A stretch of DNA of 64,000 nucleotides from Hungateiclostridiaceae bacterium UBA1305 (GTDB taxonomy: Bacteria; Bacillota; Clostridia; Acetivibrionales; DTU013): positions 8,432-72,431 of the forward strand of contig DBTX01000021.1 of assembly GCA_002307275.1 (NCBI GenBank). Reading direction: 5' to 3'. Under the pieces are notes generated by a model. The model was given only the letters and a program-made list of their open reading frames with translations, made no database searches and was not told the origin of the DNA. Made by a program: the position numbers and the translations under genes. Numbering within the stretch: position 1 is the first letter of the stretch; every line of letters begins with the position of its first letter. Below, piece by piece: positions 1,920 to 55,730 of this stretch.

Positions 1920-2107
1920 GGCTATTGCTCCTCCGTGGATGCGATCCTGCCGGTTATAGTGCTTCCGTTGATGCACTCCTGTCAGGTACAGGTGATAGTG
2001 CTTCCGATGCTGCACTCCTGTCAGGTACCGGTGATAGTGCTTCCGATGCTGCATTCCTTCAAGTATCGGTTATAGCTCCTCCGGTGATGCGATTCTGCCG
2101 GCGACAG
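1920..2107. repeat. Tandem array of about 39 bp: four degenerate copies of the leuC 3' end plus the gene's own terminus
   Basis: Hand-aligned units are 1920-1951, 1952-1990, 1991-2029 and 2030-2067, plus the genuine leuC end from 2068. Units 2 and 3 are identical at 35 of 39 positions. Unit 1920-1951 matches the leuC end (2068-2099) at 27 of 32 positions. Confidence 0.85.
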
Positions 2108-3353
2108 CGGATGCTGCTGCAATTGCAGGACTTGCAAGGTAAACTTCACTTTCCGGATGGCCCATTCTGCCGATGAAATTCCTGTTTGTCGTAGCCACAG
2201 CTCTTTCACCCTTTGCGAGTATGCCCATATGACCGCCGAGGCAGGGACCGCAGGTCGGTGTACTTACCGCAGCGCCGGCATCGATAAATATGTCAAAGAG
2301 CCCCTCATGCATTGACTGCTGCCATATTTTCTGCGTTGCGGGAATAATGATACACCTTACATCCGGATGAACCTTGCGCCCCTTGAGTATCTGTGCGGCC
2401 ATACGCATATCTTCCATCCTGCCGTTCGTGCAGGAACCGATGATCACCTGATCGATTTTTATGTTCCCAACTTTGTCGATCGTCCTCGCCTTGTCGGGAA
2501 GGGGCGGGAATGCCACAGTAGGCTTGATATCCTCAAGATTGATTACATATTCCCCACTATATACGGCATCCGTATCCGCGGTAAACACTTCGTGTGGCTT
2601 TCTGGAATGCTCCCTGACATATACCAGAGTCTGTTCATCCACTTCGAAAATTCCGTTCTTTGCTCCGGCTTCAATCGCCATGTTCGCCATGGAGAACCTG
2701 TCGTCCATGGAAAGATTTTTGAGACCATCGCCCGTAAATTCCATCGATTTATACAATGCGCCATCCACACCAATCATTCCGATGATATGCAGGATGACAT
2801 CCTTGCCGCTGACCCACTTGCCTGGTTTGCCCCTGAGTTCGAACCTGATGGCCTCGGGCACCTTGAACCAGGCTTCTCCTGTTGCCATCCCAGCCGCCAT
2901 GTCAGTGCTCCCGATCCCTGTGGAGAAAGCGCCAAGTGCGCCGTAGGTGCAGGTATGCGAATCCGCTCCGATGACCACATCACCCGGTACGACAAGCCCT
3001 TTTTCCGGCAGCAGCGCATGTTCAACACCCATTTGCCCGATTTCGAAGTAATTTACAATACCCATCTCCCGGGCAAATTCCTTTATAAATTTCACCTGCT
3101 CCGCAGATTTGATATCCTTGTTCGGAGTAAAATGATCAGGCACTATGGCAATTTTATTTTTATCAAATACTTGATTCACACCGATTTTACGAAATTCCTT
3201 CACCGCTACGGGCGTGGTGATATCGTTTCCAAGTACCATATCGAGCCTGGCCTTTATAAGCTGGCCGGCTTCCACCCTGTCAAGACCCGCATGGGCTGCA
3301 AGGATTTTCTGAGTCATCGTCATGCCTTTTCCGCTTGAAAATTGATTTGTCAT
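2070..3353 (-). CDS. leuC: 3-isopropylmalate dehydratase large subunit
   Basis: 427-aa ORF with aconitase-family Fe-S ligand regions ([29 protein letters not shown]). RBS GGGAGG is 7 nt upstream of the ATG at 3353. Confidence 0.95.
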
Positions 3354-11450: not shown

Positions 11451-11530
11451 GGCTATTATTTCAGTCAGCTATTACTGCAGTCAGTTGTTACTGCTGTCAG
11501 TGTTATTACAATCAGCTGTTACTGCTGAAC
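11451..11530. repeat. Five tandem units of about 16 bp echoing the stop region of the pilin-like gene
   Basis: The units are ggctattatttcagtca, gctattactgcagtca, gttgttactgctgtca, gtgttattacaatca and gctgttactgctgaac. The last is the gene's own end, with TAA being the complement of 11519-11521. Confidence 0.8.
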
Positions 11531-11935
11531 AAAACTGATAGCTGTAACAATGCCGTTATCATTCGTTGTGAGCGTTGATTTAAAAGTTCCTACAGGGTTA
11601 ATGTATTCACCACTGCCAGAATCGGTAATATCATATTTATTATCTGAATCGTAGTCCACTTTTGCTGCTACCATAATAGTTCTTACACTAACATCCAATA
11701 CGTCGGTCTCGCCATACATTCTCACTGCATTTACAACACTGCTGCCGGATACTTCGGTTCCGTTGTAGGCATCATATTTCTTGGAAGTGATCACCTGGCT
11801 GATTCCCTTGATATCGCTCTCAGAGTTTTTGGTAATGTCCGCACCCTGTCCAAACAGGGCAATCGCGATGGCTATTGCCGCAACAGTAATCAGTACGGCG
11901 GCTCCGAGCTTGATGATTGTTGTAACATTGTTCAT
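11519..11935 (-). CDS. Putative filament subunit / pilin-like protein (non-canonical)
   Basis: 138-aa ORF. It has a short polar N-terminus followed by a hydrophobic helix (MNNVTTIIKLGAAVLITVAAIAIAIALFGQG) and then a beta-rich Ser/Thr/Asp domain. It lies directly downstream of the platform gene, and the RBS is GGGGGATAGG. Confidence 0.55.
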   Translation of the reverse strand: MNNVTTIIKLGAAVLITVAAIAIAIALFGQGADITKNSESDIKGISQVITSKKYDAYNGTEVSGSSVVNAVRMYGETDVLDVSVRTIMVAAKVDYDSDNKYDITDSGSGEYINPVGTFKSTLTTNDNGIVTAISFVQQ

Positions 11936-11965: not shown

Positions 11966-14029
11966 TCACATTAACTGCTTCTGTATAGACGAAAAAGCAG
12001 TAAATGACGAAAAAATAATCGGCAGTGCCATATATAGAAGCAGAACGGCATAAACCGGAATAAAACCAATCAACTGGCCAAACTCAATTTTCTTGTTAAT
12101 CTGCTGCTTATTGGATTCCTTTCTGCTTTCCTTGTAAAACTCCCTTTCCAGTTCCAGAGCATCAAATGCCGCAATCAGGCTGATATCCTCATTTGCCATC
12201 TGCAAATTATCAATAATTTTGACAAACGGTTTAAATTTTACGTCTTCTTTCAGCCTTTCGAGAGCCAGGTTCTGATTCTGGAAATTGGTCAGGCACAGTT
12301 CTATCGGTGCCCTGAATATATTGGCAAATTCCTTCATCCATTCCAGTACGACCTTAACATCCACATTGTCGTGATGCATCAGAAGAATGATGATCGTATG
12401 GAATTGAAATACCTCATCCTCCATATCAACCTTTCTGAGCGACGCCTGAAAGGTAAGCAATATCATCGGGAACCAGGATGCAGCACCCGCAATGATCAAG
12501 GATAGCAAGACCTCCCATAACCGGATAGTTTCTTTTTTACTGTCAATGATTTTTAAGCAGATTCTTTGTGCTGTCAGCTCCTGATCTTCTCCCTCATAGC
12601 TCATGGAAACAAGTTCCGCTTTGGCAGCAGCCAGTATATCCTCTGCCTTTGAGAGTCCCATGCTTCCGATTTCTCCAATGATGGAAGCATCCAGTTCCCT
12701 GATTTTCTTATCATTTAGAAGTTCTTCCTCATCCAACCTGCCCATCATCCGGAAAAAGTTGGCATTATCGATTCCATAGGCAGTGTCCGCCATAATTTTT
12801 TCAACATTCGTACGATGCCCGGAGGAGAACACAGCAAGCATGATGATAAAGACAGAAATAGCGTATATCAGTCGCCGCAGGTACAGACCCTCGACCGTCA
12901 TGGCAGATCCTGCATCATCTTCCAGAAAGGATTTCAATTTGCGATACTTTACGGTATTCTGCCTTGGAGTAAAAATGTTCACAAAAAACCGTATGAAGCC
13001 TATTCTGTTGAGGTAATAATCCCAGGTCTTTTTATAACATACTTTCACTTTTTGTTCCGTCTTTTGGATCTGAACAATGAATACATAGCATACAATAATA
13101 ATCAAAAAAATGGAGCATCTTAAATAAAACCCGGTTGCTGAATCATAAAATGACGATACAATTGGGAAGCCAGACCTCATCCATGATTCGATTACCGGCG
13201 GCAGCAGCAGCGGAAACAGCACAATGATGTTCAGGCCGCGCAGCCAATAAGCCAGTTGGTTCTTTTTAATGATTTCTATCTGAATTTCTTCTGTAATATA
13301 GTTCAGATTTTTGATATACAGAGAAATGCCCTCAATCTTTTTATCTCCAAAATCCTGTACCAGGTAAGAGAAGCCGGCAAATATCTTCAGGAATTTATTT
13401 GAACATGTCTCGTAATACTCCTTCAGCATATACTCCGGGTTTGCCCCCGTCAGAATATTGTAAATCCTCGTGCCCTGATTCAACATTTCACCTGCTGTAC
13501 GTAAATTAGCCTGCTTAATGGCCTCGCCCACCATGGCCGTAGCATGGTAGAAATGCTTGACATCACCTACATAGTCAACCATGGCCGCCAGCAACCTTGT
13601 ATCGGAATTGCCTGCAAAGCTTTGTATGATCATACTGTTGAGGTAAATGCAGCAAATGCCGAATAACAGCATTGTCCAGAGGTCCGCTTGATACAGCCGG
13701 ACAAGCACGAAGAACGTGACAATTGATGTCAGGATAGAGCCGAATCCAAGCAACACGGATTTTGTATCCAGATTGGTTATCGAAGAATTACCGCCAGGAG
13801 AAAGCTGCGACCTTACCCACCTCAAATAACTGCCTATGACCGGTTTTTCATAAAGGGATTCACATCCGGATCCTGTCCAAGTCTTCCTGCTTAAGCCTCT
13901 GGTATTGATCCTTATATAATTACGGTTGGCGTTTTCAAGCCTGTTTGCTATAAATAAAGCTGCCAATGCGATAGCAATCACAAGCCCGCCGGCAGAAAAC
14001 AGTAATATTTTCGACACCGCTATCCGCAC
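11966..14029 (-). CDS. Polytopic inner-membrane platform protein, TadB+TadC-like (two GspF/T2SSF-like modules)
   Basis: 687-aa ORF with two repeats of a helical cytoplasmic region flanked by TM helices. It lies between the ATPase and the pilin-like gene. The start is uncertain: GTG at 14029 or GTG at 14017. Confidence 0.6.
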   Translation of the reverse strand: MRIAVSKILLFSAGGLVIAIALAALFIANRLENANRNYIRINTRGLSRKTWTGSGCESLYEKPVIGSYLRWVRSQLSPGGNSSITNLDTKSVLLGFGSILTSIVTFFVLVRLYQADLWTMLLFGICCIYLNSMIIQSFAGNSDTRLLAAMVDYVGDVKHFYHATAMVGEAIKQANLRTAGEMLNQGTRIYNILTGANPEYMLKEYYETCSNKFLKIFAGFSYLVQDFGDKKIEGISLYIKNLNYITEEIQIEIIKKNQLAYWLRGLNIIVLFPLLLPPVIESWMRSGFPIVSSFYDSATGFYLRCSIFLIIIVCYVFIVQIQKTEQKVKVCYKKTWDYYLNRIGFIRFFVNIFTPRQNTVKYRKLKSFLEDDAGSAMTVEGLYLRRLIYAISVFIIMLAVFSSGHRTNVEKIMADTAYGIDNANFFRMMGRLDEEELLNDKKIRELDASIIGEIGSMGLSKAEDILAAAKAELVSMSYEGEDQELTAQRICLKIIDSKKETIRLWEVLLSLIIAGAASWFPMILLTFQASLRKVDMEDEVFQFHTIIILLMHHDNVDVKVVLEWMKEFANIFRAPIELCLTNFQNQNLALERLKEDVKFKPFVKIIDNLQMANEDISLIAAFDALELEREFYKESRKESNKQQINKKIEFGQLIGFIPVYAVLLLYMALPIIFSSFTAFSSIQKQLM

Positions 14030-16053
14030 CTCCCTGAACTCTCTTCCAAGTTCCCGAATTCCTTGTCCAGGAAGGCGGCAAACAGTTTTTGATCCTCCCT
14101 CAGCATGGCTTTCGCCATCGCCTTTCTATTACTATCGCTTATCCTGTTCTTCACGACATAGGCGTTTTCAATCAGATCATATTCTATGATGTTGCGGTAA
14201 GTGTATGAATGTCCGCCAAGCATTCTTTCATAATAGCGGTACTGAGCTTCCTTGATCAGTCTGTCAAGGTTACTCGGGTCGTTGTCGTTGCTGCTATTAC
14301 TGCTACTGCTGTTACTACTGTTGCTGTTATTTCTGTTGTTGCTACTGTTGCTGTTATTGCTGCTGTTATTGCTGCTGTTACTGCTGTTGCTGTTATTGCT
14401 GCTGTTGCTGCTGTTGCTGCTGTTGCTGTTATTGCTGTTGCTGTTACTGCTGCAGTTGCTGTTACTGCTATTGCCGCTATTTTCATTACTGTCATTATTT
14501 GTTTTATAACTGTTCCTGCTGCAATCGTCTATATCGAAATCACCGGGTTCAAAGGGAATACATTCTGTTATCCTCTCAATATAACGCTTGCCGGATATAT
14601 CTTTTTCCATGTGTATATCAAAATTCAACACACTTATGATTTGCTCCTCTGCGATACGTTCATTATTAAATACATTGGTTTTAAGCAGAGAATTACGCAG
14701 GGACATTACCAAATCGGGAAACTTCTTTGCATGATGAGAAAACAGGGTAAACAGGCTTGCAACCTGTGCCGTTTGTATCATATATGCCGCTACCGGATCT
14801 GTGGCTACCTCGCCCACGATCGTTACGACGCCGTCGGTTTTTTTCAGTACGTCAAGCCCGGCCTGTCCGGTTATCGCGTCTGTTTCCTGGATGGTAACAA
14901 TGTTTCTGTTGGGATAGCTTTTGCGCACATGAAGTTCAAAAGCCATTTCCAGGATCCGGAGGGTATACGGCGTATAAATATGTTCTATCATGGCGCGCAG
15001 AAGTGTAGTTTTCCCTGATCCCTGGGCGCCCGTGACACTTGTGTTCATGCTTCCTTTCACGAGAAATCCGATCAGTTCAATAACAAGATCACAGTTCTTA
15101 TCTTTGATAAGTCCCGGAAGTGATATGTCCGGAAGATCGAATTTACGGATGAAAAAGCACCATGTTTCACAGAAGTCCGGCCTCAATACCACGACCCTTG
15201 AACCGTCCTTCAGCTTATTTACTTTGAAGCCGTCCACTTTGGAAAGCTGACCAGGATAGCCATATTTATACACGTTTTGGCATACCCTTTGAAGTTCGTC
15301 ATAGCTGCCAAGGGAAAGGAATTTTAAATGAATGCTTTTCCCTTGAAAATACAGCCAGATACTTTCATAGGAACGAACCGCTCCGGTATTGGCCACAGAT
15401 TCATACTCACTTTTGTGTTCCTGGACAAACGATTCCGGCAAACCGTTCACACCGCAGCTTAACCCATCGACCTGCATATCCATAATGTCGTCGATGACAT
15501 TATAGCCTTTATAGAGTGAATACACTCTTTGAACAATGATGTTATATTTGTCTTCATAAGTTATTACCGGTGATTCCCGTTTATAGATACGGTTGATGTC
15601 ATCCATGTCTATAAAGAAATACTCCACATCCTCAGTTTTTCTAAGCAAATCAAGATCATATTTCCTGATCAGGACAGAAAGTGCCTTATAGCCGTATTCT
15701 TTCTTGTACACATGCAGAAGGATGTCGAATTTATCCTGCACCGATAAATGCTCTACCCTTTCAAATGGAATAATATTATTGATTTTAATTGAAGTGATAT
15801 CGTAATATTGCTGCAGCAGTTCCTTGATAAACTCCTTGACAAATTCTTTATCCGGTTTGGAGCCATATATGCAGTCGTTCAGAGCAGCCTGCAGCCGTGA
15901 CTTTTTATTTTGCTTTCTTTCAAGCTCAACGCTTGTTATACCCAAGTCAAACAGCTTCAATTTCATCAGTTCATCAACTGCCTGCTGAACAAATTCCTTC
16001 ATTTGCGGTATATTGTAATTTAGCATTTTGCCGGTGTCTATCGTTAATTCCAT
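14020..16053 (-). CDS. Long CpaF/TadA/VirB11-type secretion ATPase with an Asn/Ser-rich insert
   Basis: The start is set at MELTIDTGK, with GGAGGG upstream. It has Walker A GAQGSGKTT, IVGEVATD (Walker B/Asp-box region) and FSHHA (His box). An N-terminal extension of about 330 aa precedes the core. The C-terminal region holds a run of about 75 residues of N/S. Confidence 0.85.
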   Translation of the reverse strand: MELTIDTGKMLNYNIPQMKEFVQQAVDELMKLKLFDLGITSVELERKQNKKSRLQAALNDCIYGSKPDKEFVKEFIKELLQQYYDITSIKINNIIPFERVEHLSVQDKFDILLHVYKKEYGYKALSVLIRKYDLDLLRKTEDVEYFFIDMDDINRIYKRESPVITYEDKYNIIVQRVYSLYKGYNVIDDIMDMQVDGLSCGVNGLPESFVQEHKSEYESVANTGAVRSYESIWLYFQGKSIHLKFLSLGSYDELQRVCQNVYKYGYPGQLSKVDGFKVNKLKDGSRVVVLRPDFCETWCFFIRKFDLPDISLPGLIKDKNCDLVIELIGFLVKGSMNTSVTGAQGSGKTTLLRAMIEHIYTPYTLRILEMAFELHVRKSYPNRNIVTIQETDAITGQAGLDVLKKTDGVVTIVGEVATDPVAAYMIQTAQVASLFTLFSHHAKKFPDLVMSLRNSLLKTNVFNNERIAEEQIISVLNFDIHMEKDISGKRYIERITECIPFEPGDFDIDDCSRNSYKTNNDSNENSGNSSNSNCSSNSNSNNSNSSNSSNSSNNSNSSNSSNNSSNNSNSSNNRNNSNSSNSSSSNSSNDNDPSNLDRLIKEAQYRYYERMLGGHSYTYRNIIEYDLIENAYVVKNRISDSNRKAMAKAMLREDQKLFAAFLDKEFGNLEESSGRCG
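14278..14505. repeat. Imperfect trinucleotide (GCT/GTT/ACT)n tract encoding poly-Asn/Ser
   Basis: The plus strand reads ...gttgctgctattactgctactgctgttactactgttgctgtt... for about 230 nt. Three additional track ORFs in other frames and strands (14209..15018, 14252..14509, 14256..14495) also run open across it. Confidence 0.9.
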
Positions 16054-16118
16054 CAGTACCCTCCTGCCTGTCTTCAATGTACCCTTTGGGAAGCTGATAT
16101 TGCAACCTTACAAATCAC

Positions 16119-19138: not shown

Positions 19139-20881
19139 CTATTTCCCCGGAATTGCGCCCGATGACTGAAACACATTACCAAAGATGGCCGACCGGAATT
19201 TTTGCAGCAGCTTCAAATCAGATATCAACCCCATCCTTACTAAAAGCCGGATATACGCCTGCTCAATGTCCTTTTCCATGCGCACGGCATAAGCGCCGTT
19301 CAGATTTCTATGCAGCAAACGCCTCCTGCTATATGGAATTTCCCCGAGAAAATTTCCATGAACCGCTTCTCTGGCTTCATCCGGAGTTATACTGCTGGTT
19401 TTGTCATATTCGAAAAGAACAAATTGAGTACGGTGAACACAAAGGTGCTGCTTCTCCTTCAAGAATTCAATATAAGTGTTGAATTCCCGCAGCTGATCCA
19501 CATCTCCCCGAAGTGCCGCAATATTCATATCTGATCCGAGGAGTGCCGCCAGCGTAAACGCATCGTATATGGATCTGTTAACAAGAAATATTGTAATATC
19601 AAACCTTCGATAACACTTCTCAATCAATTTTGGAACAATATCTTCATTAAAATATTCATAATTCTCCAACCGGTAATTGCCTGTCAGCACATGCAGGTTT
19701 TTCAGATCCTTTCTTTGTACGGCTGACTGCTGCAACACCTCATCATCCAATGAGCCCTTTTCCAGTGCGTCCATGACAAAATCCAATCCTGAACGTCCAT
19801 ATACTCCTCCCTGTGATAATTTCACAGGAAACTTCTTCAGGTTAAGAAACAAATCCGCTTTCGGTGCCAGCAAATCCAAATCTGCCAGAAGCACCTCGCT
19901 TTTTGTATGTTTCGCTGCCATATATGCCAGCTCACAGCCGAATTCTGCATTATCCCATACGGTAATCACAAGCTTTCTGAAAATGGCATGCTGCTTTGCT
20001 CCAAAACCTGTACTTACAGCATTTTCTTCAGGTTCACCCTGCACAGTCCGGTTGGCTGTATGAGAATTTTCCGGATTGTTACCGCTGTGCAATTTACCGT
20101 GCAGAGGGCACAAAGCCTCAAGCTCCTTTTGCAGAAGCGCCGCACTCTGATAGCGTTCAGATGCGTTTTCGCGGGTACATTTACATATGATTGCTTCCAT
20201 TTCCGGCGAAAGCTCCTCAACAAATTGCCGGACAGGTTTTATTCCATATGGTGAATCCGCCGGATTCTTCCCTGTCAGCAAATGATGCAATGTTACTCCC
20301 AGACTGTAAATGTCGGAGGCTGCACTGGTCTGCCCCCTGCCATATTGTTCCGGAGCCGCAAACCCCCGTGTACCTATATAAACCGTATCCCCTCCGGACC
20401 GTGCTTTATATTCGCGCGCTATCCCGAAATCAATTAGTTTAAGTGTTCCATTGTCCGTCAATATGATATTTGAAGGTTTCATATCCCTGTAGATGATCGG
20501 ATGCGGTTCGAGGGTATGGAGGTAATCGAGCGCCCTGCATAATTGTACAGCCCATTGTGTTACTGTTTCCTCCGCTATTCGGCCTTCTGCTTCAAGTTTT
20601 TTGTCAAGAGATATTCCATCTATATAATCTGAAACCATGTACAGTTTCCCATCCTGCACAAGTATATCGAATAATCTTGGCAGTGCGGGATGTTCCAGCC
20701 GTTTTAAAAGCTTTGGTTCGGCCAGCAGATCGACATCGGTACCATCCCTCCGGATGATTTCCTTAATCGCCCAGAAGGTATCGGTATTGATATTCTGAGC
20801 CAGATAAACCGTACCCATGCCACCCTGACCCAGTATCTTCAATATTCTATAGCGCCCGTCAAAAATGTCGCCCGCCTGCAT
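19139..20881 (-). CDS. Hanks-type Ser/Thr protein kinase fused to a P-loop-less ParA/TadZ-like domain
   Basis: 580-aa ORF. The kinase signatures GQGGMGTVYLA, AIKEI, HPIIYRDMKPSNIIL, DFGIARE and GFAAPEQ are present. The C-terminal half (LVITVWDNAEFGCELAYMAAK...ITIFLVNRSIYD) resembles ORF 16119..17003. Confidence 0.85.
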   Translation of the reverse strand: MQAGDIFDGRYRILKILGQGGMGTVYLAQNINTDTFWAIKEIIRRDGTDVDLLAEPKLLKRLEHPALPRLFDILVQDGKLYMVSDYIDGISLDKKLEAEGRIAEETVTQWAVQLCRALDYLHTLEPHPIIYRDMKPSNIILTDNGTLKLIDFGIAREYKARSGGDTVYIGTRGFAAPEQYGRGQTSAASDIYSLGVTLHHLLTGKNPADSPYGIKPVRQFVEELSPEMEAIICKCTRENASERYQSAALLQKELEALCPLHGKLHSGNNPENSHTANRTVQGEPEENAVSTGFGAKQHAIFRKLVITVWDNAEFGCELAYMAAKHTKSEVLLADLDLLAPKADLFLNLKKFPVKLSQGGVYGRSGLDFVMDALEKGSLDDEVLQQSAVQRKDLKNLHVLTGNYRLENYEYFNEDIVPKLIEKCYRRFDITIFLVNRSIYDAFTLAALLGSDMNIAALRGDVDQLREFNTYIEFLKEKQHLCVHRTQFVLFEYDKTSSITPDEAREAVHGNFLGEIPYSRRRLLHRNLNGAYAVRMEKDIEQAYIRLLVRMGLISDLKLLQKFRSAIFGNVFQSSGAIPGK

Positions 20882-21148
20882 CCAAATCCCTCACAAATCA
20901 TGGAATATTGTCATATTTTCGGCTTTTGTAGCTGTATAACAATAATGGGTATTTCTATTGTCCTTTAACGCGTCCTATATTATCACAGTCTTACAAAATT
21001 TACCATTATATTTTGCAGTTTTTTATTTATTATGCAGGTAATAGATAGGCAAGAGGCTTATCAGCACTGTAAGAGTGAATTTTCTACTGCAGAAAATAAA
21101 AGAATAAGACGGGAAATAATGCAGAAAGATGATTCATTTTAAACTGAT

Positions 21149-21422
21149 GGGTCACTTCTGATTGAGGTCCGGTGTATATTGGATTGCTCCTGATTGAGGT
21201 CCGGTGTATTGGATTACTCCTGATTAATATCCGGTGTATTGGATTACTCCTGATTAATATCCGGTGTATTGGATTACTCTTGATTAATATCCGGTGTATT
21301 GGATTACTCCTGATTAATATCCGGTGTATTGGATTACTCTTGATTGATGCCCGGTGTATTGGGTCACTCCTGATTGATACCCGGTGTATTGGGTCACTCC
21401 TGATTGAAGTCCGGTATATATT
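21149..21422. repeat. Nine phased units of about 30 bp: eight echoes plus the genuine 3' end of the PflX-like gene
   Basis: Units start at 21149, 21181, 21211, 21241, 21271, 21301, 21331, 21361 and 21391. Three central units are identical (ggattactcctgattaatatccggtgtatt). The last unit contains the gene's stop, TGA being the complement of 21394-21396. Confidence 0.95.
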
Positions 21423-22497
21423 GCTCGGAAGCAGATTCCCTGTCCTGTACAAAGCCATTAAGACCAAGCTTTGCGAATTTATAGGTCACCTTTTCATACT
21501 CGTACCTGGTAAGTCCCCTGCCAAGGACAGGATGCCCACAGGCCTTGTAGCAGGGAGTATACTGGCTCATGAGGCTTACATTTATATCTTTGGGAAGGTT
21601 TTCAGATATCCATTCAAGGACGCGCAGCGTTTCTGCCGTATGACCCGGCAGAACAAGATGCCTGATGATCATGCCGCGCGTCATTAGCCCGCTTTCGTCA
21701 AATTCGGACATGCCGACCTGCCTGTGCATTTCGAGTATCGCTTTGGAAGCTTTGTCAAAATAGTCTTTTGCTCCTGAATACTCCTTTGACACTTCCGGGC
21801 TGATGTATTTGAGATCCGGCAGGTAAATGTCGATGGATCCATCCAGCATTTTTAATGAATTCAGGCTATCATAACCATTTGTGTTATAAACGACGGGGAT
21901 ATCGAGAGGCCTGGGTTGAGTAACGAAATTTGGGACAGGAGCAGCAGGACAGTTGGATTGTCCGCCTCTTTGGACAGAAACAGGAGGGACGAAGGTAGCG
22001 GGAAAGGGAGGGACAGAGGGACAGGTCCTCTGTACCGGAACAAAAGCAAGTGGAACAGAGGACTTGTCCCTCCATCCCTCATACTCGGGCCTTTCCCTCC
22101 GTCCCTCATGTCCCTCCGTCTCCCATGCCGCTCTCGCCAGATCCAGCGCTTCCTTGATGGCAGGCACAAAATGGGAGGGTGTTACAAGGTTTATATTATG
22201 CGCGCCTTTATCCTGCAAAGACAGGAATATTCCTGCAAGCTCCATTATGGACATTTCTTTGCCGATGCCGCCGTGACTGATTTCATGATTCTGACAGAAG
22301 ATGCACTTTAAATTGCAGCCGGAAAAGAACACTGTGCCCGAACCGCGTGTTCCGCTGATACAAGGTTCCTCCCACATGTGCAGAGAAGCTCTTGCAACCA
22401 CTGGCTTTTCTCCCATACCGCAGAACCCTTTGCTCTTTTCCCTGTCGATATCACATTCTCTGGGACAAATATTGCATTTCATACCGATATTCCTCAA
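21394..22497 (-). CDS. PflX-like radical-SAM protein (pyruvate formate-lyase activase homologue, COG1313-type)
   Basis: 367-aa ORF. CNICPRECDIDR...FCG, ASLHMWEEPCISG and FFSGCNLKCIFCQN (CxxxCxxC) are typical of the family. An atypical insert of about 73 aa lies at residues 125-197. Confidence 0.85.
   Translation of the reverse strand: MRNIGMKCNICPRECDIDREKSKGFCGMGEKPVVARASLHMWEEPCISGTRGSGTVFFSGCNLKCIFCQNHEISHGGIGKEMSIMELAGIFLSLQDKGAHNINLVTPSHFVPAIKEALDLARAAWETEGHEGRRERPEYEGWRDKSSVPLAFVPVQRTCPSVPPFPATFVPPVSVQRGGQSNCPAAPVPNFVTQPRPLDIPVVYNTNGYDSLNSLKMLDGSIDIYLPDLKYISPEVSKEYSGAKDYFDKASKAILEMHRQVGMSEFDESGLMTRGMIIRHLVLPGHTAETLRVLEWISENLPKDINVSLMSQYTPCYKACGHPVLGRGLTRYEYEKVTYKFAKLGLNGFVQDRESASEQYIPDFNQE
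21907..22125. repeat. G+C-rich imperfect palindrome inserted in frame in the PflX-like gene
   Basis: On the coding strand, GAGGGA-type motifs repeat in one arm and TCCCTC-type motifs in the other. For example, GGGAGGGACAGAGGGACAGGTCCTCTGT faces ACAGAGGACTTGTCCCTCCATCCCTC. Besides the gene frame, four other track ORFs cross parts of it. Confidence 0.75.
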
Positions 22498-31637: not shown

Positions 31638-31877
31638 TCACTTCATATTCATTTTAATAATTTCATCCAGCGATATTTTATCGGTTTCGGGCTTAATTCT
31701 GGCTGCTTCTTCATTTTCACGCTGTATCTCCAGGAAAACTTCCTTTCTGTGTATGGATACGCTTCTGGGAGCATTAATTCCGATACGTACCTGATCCCCC
31801 TGGATATCAAGCACAGTGATCTCTATATCATTATTTATGACGATCGTCTGATCCTTTTTCCTTGTCAGTACCAGCAT
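31638..31877 (-). CDS. csrA: Carbon storage regulator CsrA
   Basis: MLVLTRKKDQTIVINNDIEITVLDIQGDQVRIGINAPRSVSIHRKEV is the CsrA core. The start is placed at this Met rather than the longer track ORF. Confidence 0.9.
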   Translation of the reverse strand: MLVLTRKKDQTIVINNDIEITVLDIQGDQVRIGINAPRSVSIHRKEVFLEIQRENEEAARIKPETDKISLDEIIKMNMK

Positions 31878-32331
31878 CGGCGCCGCCCTCCTGTCTGCGG
31901 ATTTCATCCAATATATAGTGTCTCACAGTGTACTTGTCGGTGTCAAGGATTATTTGGGCGCCCTTATTCGTGCTGCAGTTGATGATCAAAGGTGCTTTCA
32001 GGTTCATGCTGATTCTTGTCAGATCATCCGGTACAACAACGATGGAATATACCGCTACATCATCTTCCTTTGCAATACAAAGTTCCCGGGCTGCTTCATC
32101 GGGCAGCTCAAAGTCATAGTCCGCTACAATCATAAAAGGATTGGCAATTGCAAATGCAATCTGTGGTTCATTGACACATTGCAGCCATCCGAACGGAGAG
32201 GTCTTATCTTCATTCCCAATGAGTACGAATTTATTAAGCTGTTCAAAACCCGGCAGTCCTTCATCAAATTTCAAAACACTCTCCTCAGCTATCCTGATTT
32301 CCCCGAAGTGCCTTGTTTGTAATACTCTCAT
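31831..32331 (-). CDS. fliW: Flagellar assembly factor FliW
   Basis: MRVLQTRHFGEIRIAEESVLKFDEGLPGFEQLNKFVLI...FGWLQCV is FliW-typical. The ATG lies 5 nt after GGAGGA. The 3' end overlaps csrA. Confidence 0.9.
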   Translation of the reverse strand: MRVLQTRHFGEIRIAEESVLKFDEGLPGFEQLNKFVLIGNEDKTSPFGWLQCVNEPQIAFAIANPFMIVADYDFELPDEAARELCIAKEDDVAVYSIVVVPDDLTRISMNLKAPLIINCSTNKGAQIILDTDKYTVRHYILDEIRRQEGGADAGTDKEKGSDDRHK

Positions 32332-32396
32332 AATATCCTCCACTCAGCAGTTACTGTAAAATTCACTTCATTATTTTGACTGTATTGCAACGAACT

Positions 32397-46746: not shown

Positions 46747-48393
46747 ATGGGCAAAATAGTCTTAGTTTCAATCCTGCCCACAAGCAGAAAACGTCTTTTG
46801 GAGTTGCAGAGTCAAGAAATCGCCTTGACGGAGTTGTTCAACTGGTCTACATGGCCGCTTGGCATTCTCTCTATTGAAAGCTATATAAAAAAATCCCGCC
46901 CCCAACTATCTGTGGAAATAGTTGACCTGAACAGGACTTTTCTTAAAGATATCAATGCAAGCGCAGATTATAAAGAGGGTTTAAAAGAGATAACAGATAA
47001 CTACACGCAGTTTTTGACCAAGGAAATCATCGATATTTGTCAGCGGGAACAGGTAGATATTATTGGGTTATCCGCGCTCTTTGATATATCTCTGTCGTCA
47101 CTTTTGCTTGTAGCCGAGGAAGTGCGTAAAGCGGCACCCAATACTCTCATCATTGCAGGAGGCTATCCCTGCACCAATTTCGCTGCTGATATCATTGCCA
47201 GAAATCCTGCTGTAGATGCAATTTGCCTCGGCGAGGGTGAGGTTCCCTTTGCTGAATTAATTGCCGCCGACGACAAGAAAGAATACCTGAATACATCGTC
47301 TTACTTCGTCACAAAGGCTCACAAGGGAGATACAAAAGGATTTATTCCAGACATAAACGACATTCCCCGTCTGAACTATGACGGCTATATCGCCAAATAC
47401 GGTGATGAAGTAATCAAGGAGTATGTAAACGTGCTAAATGGCGGGAAGGGGGCCTTTGGAACTGAAGGTATCGTTATGACCACCAGGGGCTGTCCCTTTT
47501 CTTGCGTTTTTTGCGCTGCCCACTCCATTCATGGAAGAAGCATGCGCTATCTTTCAATAGAACGAGTCAAAGAGGAAATTGATTATTGGATAGATAATTA
47601 TAATGTTGCTACAATAAATATTATAGACGACCATTTTCTGGCTGATGTGGGCCGTGCTATTGAGATAATCGACTATATATGCGGCAGAGGAAGAAACGTG
47701 TTCTTTGCCAATACCCTCTCCTTTGTTCCTGTAACAAAAGAGTTTGTTGATTGCCTGGTTCGCAATGGAATCAAAGATATTCACTTCGCCCTCGAATCCG
47801 GCTCCACCCGTGTACTGCGGGATATTATGCACAAACCTGTAACATTAAGGCGCGCTGATGAAGTGCTTTCCATGTTTAAAGGCACTGGCATTTTCGTGAA
47901 AATCGCCCTTCTCGTGGGATTTCCCGATGAAACGGTTGACGATATAAAGGAAGCTCTCCAGTACTTAAGGAAAGCAGAATATCATTGGGCCACCATCAGC
48001 AATTTGATTCCTATTTCAGGGAGTGTAGTATACAAACAAATCATTGAGGTTTCGGGGACTGAGTACAAAATGGATAACGCCAACGTGTTCGCAGCAGGAT
48101 ACGCAAATCCCGAAACAGTCGCATATATGCTGGGCGACATTAAATATACCATGAACTTGGATATTAACTTCGTCCATAATTCATATATGCGTATAGGAGA
48201 GTATGGGTTGGCGGCGGGACGTTTCGAATCGATCCTGAGAAGCTATCCTAATCACGCCTTCGCTCATTATTATCTCGCAAAATGCCGCGAGAAACTAGGC
48301 GAGGACGGAACCGAACATTATCAGCAATTCTGCCAATTGGTGAGCACAAGTGAATTGTGGACGAAATACGCTACACATTTCGGATTGGAGTAG
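46747..48393 (+). CDS. B12-binding-domain radical-SAM enzyme (class B, methylase-like)
   Basis: 548-aa ORF. The N-terminal region (DIIGLSALF...LIIAGGYPCT) resembles a cobalamin-binding Rossmann domain. It is followed by TTRGCPFSCVFCAAH (CxxxCxxC). Confidence 0.82.
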   Translation: MGKIVLVSILPTSRKRLLELQSQEIALTELFNWSTWPLGILSIESYIKKSRPQLSVEIVDLNRTFLKDINASADYKEGLKEITDNYTQFLTKEIIDICQREQVDIIGLSALFDISLSSLLLVAEEVRKAAPNTLIIAGGYPCTNFAADIIARNPAVDAICLGEGEVPFAELIAADDKKEYLNTSSYFVTKAHKGDTKGFIPDINDIPRLNYDGYIAKYGDEVIKEYVNVLNGGKGAFGTEGIVMTTRGCPFSCVFCAAHSIHGRSMRYLSIERVKEEIDYWIDNYNVATINIIDDHFLADVGRAIEIIDYICGRGRNVFFANTLSFVPVTKEFVDCLVRNGIKDIHFALESGSTRVLRDIMHKPVTLRRADEVLSMFKGTGIFVKIALLVGFPDETVDDIKEALQYLRKAEYHWATISNLIPISGSVVYKQIIEVSGTEYKMDNANVFAAGYANPETVAYMLGDIKYTMNLDINFVHNSYMRIGEYGLAAGRFESILRSYPNHAFAHYYLAKCREKLGEDGTEHYQQFCQLVSTSELWTKYATHFGLE

Positions 48394-54903: not shown

Positions 54904-55407
54904 TTATTTTGGAGAGTGTGAAAAGATAGTGAAATCTTCAAAAATGTGCTCCCTATCCTCAAACTTCAATACCTCTACATTTGAAAAATCTTTTTGCAGC
55001 TTTTCCAGCAGCAGGAAAGTATTATCAGAGGAATCCATATCAATGATGACCAGACTATTGTCCGACATAACCCTGGATGCGAAATCATTCTTAACAGCAG
55101 TTCTGACAATATATTCGATCTGCTCCTCCGCATCCCTGACAAGCAGTATCATACGCACACCAGAACGCATGGGCAAGTAGTTGACACAGTCAACGACCAG
55201 ACCAGGGCGCATTGGCGAGCAGTTGATACCGTCAACGACCAGCCTAGGAGGTTTTCCCGGACTCCTTCCGAAAAAATGCACCGCAACTGTGCGTCCAAGG
55301 ATAAACAGGCCGTATATAGCCAAAAGACAACCGACCAGCTTGAAAAGTATGTAAATCAAACTCGACCCTCCTTGTAAAATTACTGAGAATATTATATTAT
55401 TCATCAC
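54904..55407 (-). CDS. Hypothetical membrane-anchored protein with an internal 14-aa duplication
   Basis: 167-aa ORF with an N-terminal TM pair (IIFSVILQGG...LVGCLLAIYGLFILG). No family was recognised. Confidence 0.6.
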   Translation of the reverse strand: MMNNIIFSVILQGGSSLIYILFKLVGCLLAIYGLFILGRTVAVHFFGRSPGKPPRLVVDGINCSPMRPGLVVDCVNYLPMRSGVRMILLVRDAEEQIEYIVRTAVKNDFASRVMSDNSLVIIDMDSSDNTFLLLEKLQKDFSNVEVLKFEDREHIFEDFTIFSHSPK

Positions 55408-55570: not shown

Positions 55571-55730
55571 GAATTGCCATAACTTACTGTTTCCTGCTAT
55601 TGCTTACCTTTGCCTGCTATTGCTTACCTTTGCCTGCTATTGCTTACCATCACTTGCCATATTTTGCCATTGTCTGTCATTGCTCGCCTTATATTCCCAT
55701 GTCATACCATTGCCTGCCATTTCTTACATT
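55571..55730. repeat. About 16 units with strict 10-bp periodicity (including 3 copies of a 20-bp unit) between the metK stop and its putative terminator
   Basis: In the printed 10-mers: gaattgccat aacttactgt ttcctgctat tgcttacctt tgcctgctat tgcttacctt tgcctgctat tgcttaccat cacttgccat attttgccat tgtctgtcat tgctcgcctt atattcccat gtcataccat tgcctgccat ttcttacatt. The metK stop is the complement of 55724-55726. Confidence 0.85.

Follow-up and report, generated by a model that had tools for sequence, protein, structure and literature searches.

The array described here lies at the 3′ end of a PflX-like radical-SAM gene, within a 64-kb stretch of DNA that was analysed over its whole length and is referred to below as the window. 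The gene (21394–22482, minus strand) encodes 362 aa from its ATG, with an alternative upstream start at TTG 22497, and carries the Pfam Radical_SAM domain; an exact record of the protein exists under the JGI name PflX. Downstream lies a Ser/Thr protein kinase gene (19139–20881, minus strand), the first gene of a predicted pilus/secretion cluster, which adjoins the radical-SAM gene in all relatives examined. Two features occupy the interval between them: the array itself (21149–21422), which begins within the last codons of the radical-SAM gene and is designated array C among the four sizeable intergenic arrays of the window (A to D), and a non-coding block of ~230 nt (20882–21125, minus strand) immediately upstream of the kinase gene. 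This block is conserved in an alignment of four genomes (the window, L167, L085 and L002), examples being TTATTTCCCGTCT..TTATTTTCTGCAG and TGTGATAATAT; it has no Rfam match, and probably serves the kinase operon as promoter or leader. Within the radical-SAM gene, an in-frame insert of ~75 residues (~21900–22130) contains direct repeats (TCCCTCCGTCCCTCAT, three times) and inverted repeats with 29-nt arms that are 86% complementary. The proteins of relatives carry inserts of 0 to ~90 residues at the same position, of unrelated sequence.

Array C consists of nine head-to-tail units on the minus strand (a copy number that could be collapsed if the assembly was made from short reads), of 32 nt, seven times 30 nt and 32 nt. 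The initial annotation had likewise counted nine units, but had assigned 30 bp to eight of them; seven are of this length, and both the gene-terminal and the outermost unit are of 32 nt. Tandem Repeats Finder places the array at 21154–21419 (period 30, 8.8 copies, 90% matches) with a score of 360, the highest of any array in the 64 kb. The repetition is well beyond chance, as the central 30-mer has four matches with at most one mismatch, compared to none in 100 shuffles, and the 12-mer CCAATACACCGG occurs seven times, always within array C and nowhere else in the window, where 0.14 occurrences would be expected.

The units are numbered outward from the gene. U0 (21422–21391, 32 nt, AATATATACCGGACTTCAATCAGGAGTGACCC) encodes ..QYIPDFNQE and contains the true stop codon, TGA at 21396–21394, which confirms the initial assignment of this unit to the C-terminus of the protein; the seed of the array is the final 27 nt of the gene plus its stop. 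U1 (21390–21361) and U2 (21360–21331) are transitional units of 30 nt, reading GGGTATC and GGGCATC respectively, and are followed by a homogenised core of four 30-nt units (U3–U6, 21330–21211), with the sequence AATACACCGGATATTAATCA(G/A)GAGTAATCC. U3, U5 and U6 are the three identical central copies recognised previously, and U4 is one base different. Beyond the core lie U7 (21210–21181, 30 nt, GGACCTC) and the outermost U8 (21180–21149, 32 nt, AATATACACCGGACCTCAATCAGAAGTGACCC), after which the sequence continues with ATCAGTTT. The in-frame stops reported at the gene-adjacent units are present as TGA in U1 and as TAA in each of U2 to U6, every time behind codons for ..NQE, but they do not extend to the far end of the array: U7 has CAA at the stop position and no stop, and U8 is shifted in frame by 2 nt.

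Comparison of the units reveals an ordered genealogy. U0 is 91% identical to U8 and 84% to U1, and 75–78% identical to the centre, in agreement with the earlier view that the gene-adjacent and outermost units are the most gene-like. The inner units share a 2-nt deletion, reading GGATATT in the core, and grade into it from U7 on one side and from U1 and U2 on the other. U8 abuts the ancestral downstream sequence (C)CATCAGTTT, whose counterpart in the relative L084/L167 is (T)CCACCAGTT. A homogenised centre between ancestral edges is the pattern expected of unequal exchange or slippage, and to this extent the initial reading holds, although an exchange that is still ongoing, as then suggested, is conjectural. 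Two ORFs run through the array, one on the minus strand (21084–21467, open through array C) and one antisense (21172–21687); both were rejected as genes, since a unit of this kind is expected to leave one of the three frames open.

The units are contiguous, with a start-to-start spacing equal to the unit length and no unique spacers, and the array is, as noted before, not a CRISPR. Further copies of the 30-mer, which would have pointed to a dispersed family, were found neither in the window nor in exact-pattern scans of metagenome and viral contigs. It is extremely improbable that the array is an assembly artefact, or what is left of a mobile element or att site. Short-read contigs do break in arrays C and D, showing that these repeats trouble assemblers, but an ordered genealogy of diverged units is beyond what an assembler can create. 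Moreover, an independent run yielded the outer 2.5 units of array C with every base the same (contig L001, SRR5325151, which ends inside the array), so that array C is not an artefact of one assembly; array A is likewise the same in a third run. The three contigs from the same species are 100% identical clones, which break inside arrays or, at array A, have the same copy number. A mobile origin is opposed by the derivation of the units from the local gene end, and no integrase, inverted repeats or dispersed copies were found.

The radical-SAM locus is well conserved outside the array. A syntenic series of hydrolase, radical-SAM, Ser/Thr kinase and secretion ATPase (T2SSE family) genes is common to L002 (73%), L084/L167 (77%) and L085 (71%), and the order from radical-SAM gene to kinase is conserved in four genomes. 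The C-terminal motif (F/Y)IP(D/E)F.. is kept in 14 relatives of the protein, the closest of which end in YIPDFNQE, and the genes of L002, L084/L167 and L085 all terminate in ...CCGGACTTCAA(T/C)CAGGAGTAA. None of these three has tandem repeats at the 3′ end of the radical-SAM gene. As array-less relatives also keep YIPDFNQE, the initial claim that array C echoes the terminus of its own gene is upheld. After the stop codon, L084/L167 continues directly with TCCACCAGTTCAAC.., the counterpart of the window sequence 3′ of U8, and L002 and L085 have unrelated spacers. Given that array-less relatives at 71–77% protein identity possess the same synteny and the same C-terminus, the window carries an insertion of ~245 nt made from the gene's own terminus. 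The array thus arose after the lineage split from the relatives at 77% identity. No relative of the protein above 77% identity was present in a collection of 5.8 billion proteins, and in a scan of genome contigs the best among the matches listed was at 68%. The names of the nearest relatives identify the organism as an uncultured bacterium of the class Clostridia (Bacillota). Orthologous radical-SAM genes at 80 other loci have no such echo array, only one of them (L067) showing a single 15-nt echo, and the function of the gene therefore does not call for an array. In an array-less relative the conserved block starts ~25 nt past the radical-SAM stop, and these ~25 nt are the whole of the unconstrained spacer.

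Array C is not the only gene terminus to be repeated in this segment. An echo scan, in which the last 36 nt of each ORF were compared to the downstream 250 nt, gave matches for the radical-SAM gene (z 21), leuC (z 14) and ORF 11519–11935 (z 5.7). A further match, at 46747–48393, was taken as chance. Array A (1920–2106, minus strand) is built from the terminus of leuC, encoding an aconitase-family large subunit, and has five units of 32, 38, 39, 39 and 32 nt; its edge units are 84% alike, whilst the centre is 58–67% identical to the edges. It fills a leuC–leuD spacer of 220 nt, a junction at which most relatives have an ATGA overlap or a spacer of <35 nt. Beyond the stop, the leuC frame runs on for 61 open codons and ends 17 nt short of the leuD ATG. 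A third sequencing run of the same species (L086) shows the identical array. In another leuC relative (L115), hairpin-like repeats (GGATGAAATTCCTTYGGAATTT) with AGTGAA-rich echoes lie after two consecutive genes, at 2472–2680 and 3190–3300; these elements may be a different, small dispersed repeat.

Array B (11456–11535, minus strand) consists of 16-nt units (..CTGAC.GCAGTAAY) from the stop of ORF 11519–11935, and is represented by a single unit in the 77% relative. Its host is a 138-aa gene of the predicted pilus/secretion cluster that ends in CAG CAG TAA; this ending matches the units of the array and not the AAC TGA of the relative, which suggests that the array may have overwritten the C-terminus of the gene. 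Neither array B nor array C is present in a 21-kb syntenic stretch of the 77% relative. Array D (55575–55726, minus strand) repeats a 20-nt unit ~7.5 times, with a sub-period of 10 nt; three of the central units are perfect, and the first unit opens with the metK stop TAA itself. It was missed by the echo scan (z 0.6) and was recognised from its sequence and its 10/20-nt periodicity; it is also found in a second run, where the short-read contig L168 breaks. The contrast between edges and centre seen in array C recurs in arrays A and D, but the unit sequences of the four arrays are unrelated, and the periods of the three sister arrays are 39, 16 and 20 nt. Two other repeats of the window lie inside ORFs. 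One is a 42-nt tandem duplication (55156–55239, 81–83% identity) in an unannotated ORF (54904–55407) just downstream of the metK array; the other is a long, imperfect 9/39-nt CTG/TTG-rich tandem repeat (14265–14529) in a 685-aa T2SSE-like ATPase gene (14020–16077), and represents a coding low-complexity tract.

We compared the window with other Clostridia loci by two measures. Echo-scan matches were obtained for 4 of 55 genes in the window, three of which are true arrays, and for 6 of 556 genes elsewhere (7 of 557 if the same-species contig L086 is included among the fetched loci); Fisher p = 0.008, or 0.04 when only the three true arrays are counted. A Tandem Repeats Finder census gave four intergenic arrays in the 64 kb of the window, all at stops, and eight in ~594 kb of other Clostridia loci. 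Two of these eight together form an echo array in L087, the closest relative of leuC (85%), at the leuC stop (2445–2545); it has different units, of 11–17 nt (GGCGCGTGA-like), and the leuC–leuD junction reads ..GAGGAAATCGGCGCGTGA / GGGAATCGGCGCGTGA GAAAACCGGCGTGCTAA AGGCGCGAGAA .. in this species. None of the remaining six arrays overlaps a stop, five of them lying 19–236 nt from the nearest gene 3′ end. Taken together, the excesses in both the echo scan and the census indicate that the lineage is unusually repeat-prone and that its arrays are stop-anchored, in an organism sampled by 64 kb only. The repeat-rich insert within the radical-SAM gene is a further sign of this proneness.

We propose that array C is a lineage-specific minisatellite, left behind by slippage or unequal exchange and tolerated, and we put the probability of this reading at about 0.6. 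The founding step would have been a tandem duplication of 32 nt (27 coding bases, the stop and 2–3 further bases) that gave rise to U0 and U8, the pair being identified as the founders by their close likeness and their common length of 32 nt. A copy that had lost 2 nt would then have expanded between them, by slipped-strand mispairing or by unequal sister-strand exchange, and repeated homogenisation of the centre would have left the ancestral sequence in the edge units, which are flanked by unique DNA. A point against this reading is the divergence of the units by up to 25%, which shows that array C has lasted for some time and has not been lost. The preservation of the gene frame is incidental, since the founder unit is of 32 nt and the sister periods are 39, 16 and 20 nt, and the in-frame stops of U1–U6 are kept by descent, U7 having lost its own.

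The position of the array may reflect constraint. A duplication spanning the stop would do no harm, as ORF and stop codon survive intact in the first copy, and it would be tolerated in the ~25-nt unconstrained zone that follows. With coding sequence on one side and the conserved block ~25 nt past the stop on the other, a 32-nt duplication that avoids both must nearly always span the stop. The leuC–leuD junction leaves still less room. Between related species of Staphylococcus and other bacteria, conservation is typically lost within ~10 nt of the stop (PMC7049690). Such a filter would be a good fit for arrays C and A and a less complete one for B and D, and for this reason a mutational bias linked to stops is retained as the principal rival, with selection for such arrays as a further possibility. 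That all four sizeable intergenic arrays of the window lie at a stop, or a few bases from one, is a point against a reading as minisatellites and nothing else; a rough neutral estimate for stop anchoring is ~0.1–0.5 per array.

According to this rival, a mutational process of the lineage seeds duplications specifically where translation ends, and the arrays are its scars, not the survivors of a process that acts uniformly. A candidate route would be that RNA polymerase loses its trailing ribosome, backtracks and collides with the replisome, with template switching as the consequence. In E. coli, co-directional conflicts and breaks are caused by polymerases that have backtracked beyond the point where the ribosome is released, and the anchoring of four out of four window arrays, with array D opening on the stop codon itself, the independent array at the leuC stop of L087 and the absence of any stop overlap among the other Clostridia arrays all point in the same direction. 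However, four arrays in 64 kb are a small sample, the constraint map accounts for array C, and almost trivially for array A, and coupling of transcription and translation is reportedly weak in Bacillota. On balance we regard instability linked to the stop site as unlikely. GC skew was considered as a marker of replication direction and discarded as uninformative, as it merely tracks gene orientation.

The initial annotation had supposed that array C forms a periodic RNA or DNA platform for protein binding. This supposition was not borne out: the sense-strand RNA of the array folds at −58 kcal/mol, no better than shuffles (z −0.69), the best Rfam 15 scores are 12–25 bits against thresholds of 45–300, with none inside the array, and relatives do not have the array. 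For the antisense strand the fold is a little more stable than that of shuffles (z −2.2), but this is G–U pairing within a repeat. The four arrays were also searched for a shared motif (GGA, AGGAG, stop density and purine content), and none was present in all of them; neither RNA folding nor Rfam nor this search yielded positive evidence for a function of array C. The expectation that the array is transcribed fared better. On the minus strand, no intrinsic terminator or promoter-like site was found between the radical-SAM stop and the kinase start, which makes it plausible that array C is transcribed, as a 3′ UTR or perhaps as an intercistronic spacer.

A transcribed array could act as an RNA platform, its GGA and AGGAG motifs binding CsrA or 30S subunits; it would then titrate these, or stabilise or tune the mRNA of the downstream kinase and pilus/secretion cluster. 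The sense strand of array C has 11 GGA and 5 AGGAG in the 245-nt echo, compared to a background of 2.26 and 0.13 per 100 nt, and array A has 9 GGA in 150 nt; in arrays A and C, GGA is enriched two- to three-fold and AGGAG about fifteen-fold on the sense strand. This enrichment could be functional: the RNA is unstructured and hence accessible, no terminator intervenes before the next gene, and the window also encodes csrA and fliW. These two genes (31638–32343, minus strand) are adjacent, their listed ORFs overlap, and they lie beside flagellin and hook-associated genes. The placement of csrA–fliW beside flagellar genes is the usual arrangement in Bacillota. An RNA platform is nevertheless quite unlikely, because the motifs are inherited from the terminal codons CCG-GAC and CAG-GAG, the GGA motifs of array C do not lie in conserved hairpin loops and no canonical start codon follows AGGAG; arrays B and D hold only 0 and 2 GGA, and all relatives manage without the array.

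The regular phasing of nine units at 30 bp, about three helical turns, would also suit a platform at the level of DNA, which could activate or silence the promoter of the kinase and pilus/secretion cluster. Array C lies 270–540 nt upstream of the kinase start codon, and the 12-mer CCAATACACCGG is invariant in seven units. We consider this very unlikely, given that this invariance is explained by the recent common descent of the units, that the 12-mer is found nowhere else in the 64 kb, that relatives keep the promoter-proximal block without the array, and that the settings of the sister arrays have little in common with this one, array A for instance lying within the leuCD operon.

Finally, the echoes might be a safety device for translation, supplying back-up stops and native C-terminal residues upon read-through, as the in-frame TGA or TAA behind ..NQE in each of U1–U6 might suggest. 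One back-up stop would be enough, leaving eight echoes unexplained; in array A the gene frame is open for 61 codons after the stop; the unit lengths of arrays B and D are not divisible by 3, nor is that of the founding unit (32 nt); and the stops of array C are kept by descent, that of U7 having been lost. This explanation is hardly credible. Returning to a tolerated minisatellite, array C most likely does nothing specific and is at most a length-variable untranslated spacer between the radical-SAM gene and the kinase and pilus/secretion genes.

Taken alone, array C would be an ordinary minisatellite of modest interest, and the interesting part is the recurrence: four terminus-derived, stop-anchored arrays in 64 kb, compared to almost none in ~590 kb of other Clostridia loci. 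It is conceivable, although we hold it to be doubtful, that a process of the lineage, whether mutational or selected, seeds and expands minisatellites exactly at stop sites genome-wide and turns gene termini into length-variable untranslated spacers. If so, the leuC–leuD junction would have been struck in each of two related species, by units of unrelated sequence, and the spacers could tune 3′ UTR or intercistronic expression. Should the pattern be confirmed genome-wide, it would indicate either an instability of DNA connected with translation termination or a simple evolutionary route to new 3′ UTR or intercistronic sequence in compact bacterial genomes. In practical terms, arrays at gene ends break short-read assemblies and create spurious ORFs, such as the two that run through array C.

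Several known systems resemble parts of this pattern. CsrB/RsmZ-type sponge RNAs, like array C, bear (C)AGGA motifs in many copies on a single RNA. These, however, are stand-alone, conserved sRNA genes with their GGA motifs in hairpin loops, whereas array C is unstructured and unconserved, lacks a promoter and terminator of its own, and has inherited its motif from coding sequence. The TAACTGA heptamer arrays of Beggiatoaceae and Cyanobacteria are stop-containing intergenic direct repeats, some of which overlap the end of the upstream ORF (PMC4679880). They differ from array C in that a single 7-nt unit occurs at >150 loci, mostly directly before start codons, and is not derived from a neighbouring gene (PMC4679880).

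MIRUs are tandem units of 40–100 bp between co-oriented genes of an operon, with frames tied to the stops and starts of the neighbours (PMC12548453), and array A similarly fills the junction between the operon genes leuC and leuD. MIRUs nonetheless share one consensus as members of a single dispersed and apparently mobile family, whereas no array of the window is dispersed and each has unique units that stem from its own gene. No consensus recurs across loci here, the units of the four arrays being unrelated and the 30-mer unique, and the coupling of stop and start is also missing from array C, where stops close the units in the gene frame and no canonical start is present.

The tandem repeats of Borg extrachromosomal elements are genome-specific and pervasive, each being unique, of independent origin and absent from close relatives (PMC9879509); they are found between genes as well as inside them, there in multiples of 3, and have partial 'seed' copies at their flanks (PMC9879509). 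Array C resembles them in its restriction to one genome, its local seed and its absence from relatives; the window contains several unique arrays that relatives lack, but with imperfect, older units (90% matches) and in a sample of 64 kb. Borg repeats are, in the same account, perfect, A-biased, very recent and carried by archaeal elements (PMC9879509), whereas the arrays of the window lie on a bacterial chromosome and have units diverged by up to 25%. The portions consulted report no anchoring to stop codons (PMC9879509), unlike what is seen in the window. In the literature searched, we found no description of gene-terminus-derived, stop-anchored arrays recurring in one bacterial genome.

The closest match is with bacterial minisatellites, or VNTRs. 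Array C is made of head-to-tail units of at least ~10 bp, repeated beyond chance, with a locus-specific unit of local origin. Bacterial VNTRs likewise have head-to-tail local units of 10–100 bp, a unit of its own for each locus, a homogenised centre and no counterpart in related species, and form by replication slippage. Their hallmark is copy-number polymorphism, whereas here the same-species contigs are only 100% identical clones. What sets array C apart from a typical VNTR is that its unit is the gene's own terminus, stop codon included, and that several such stop-anchored arrays are found in one segment.
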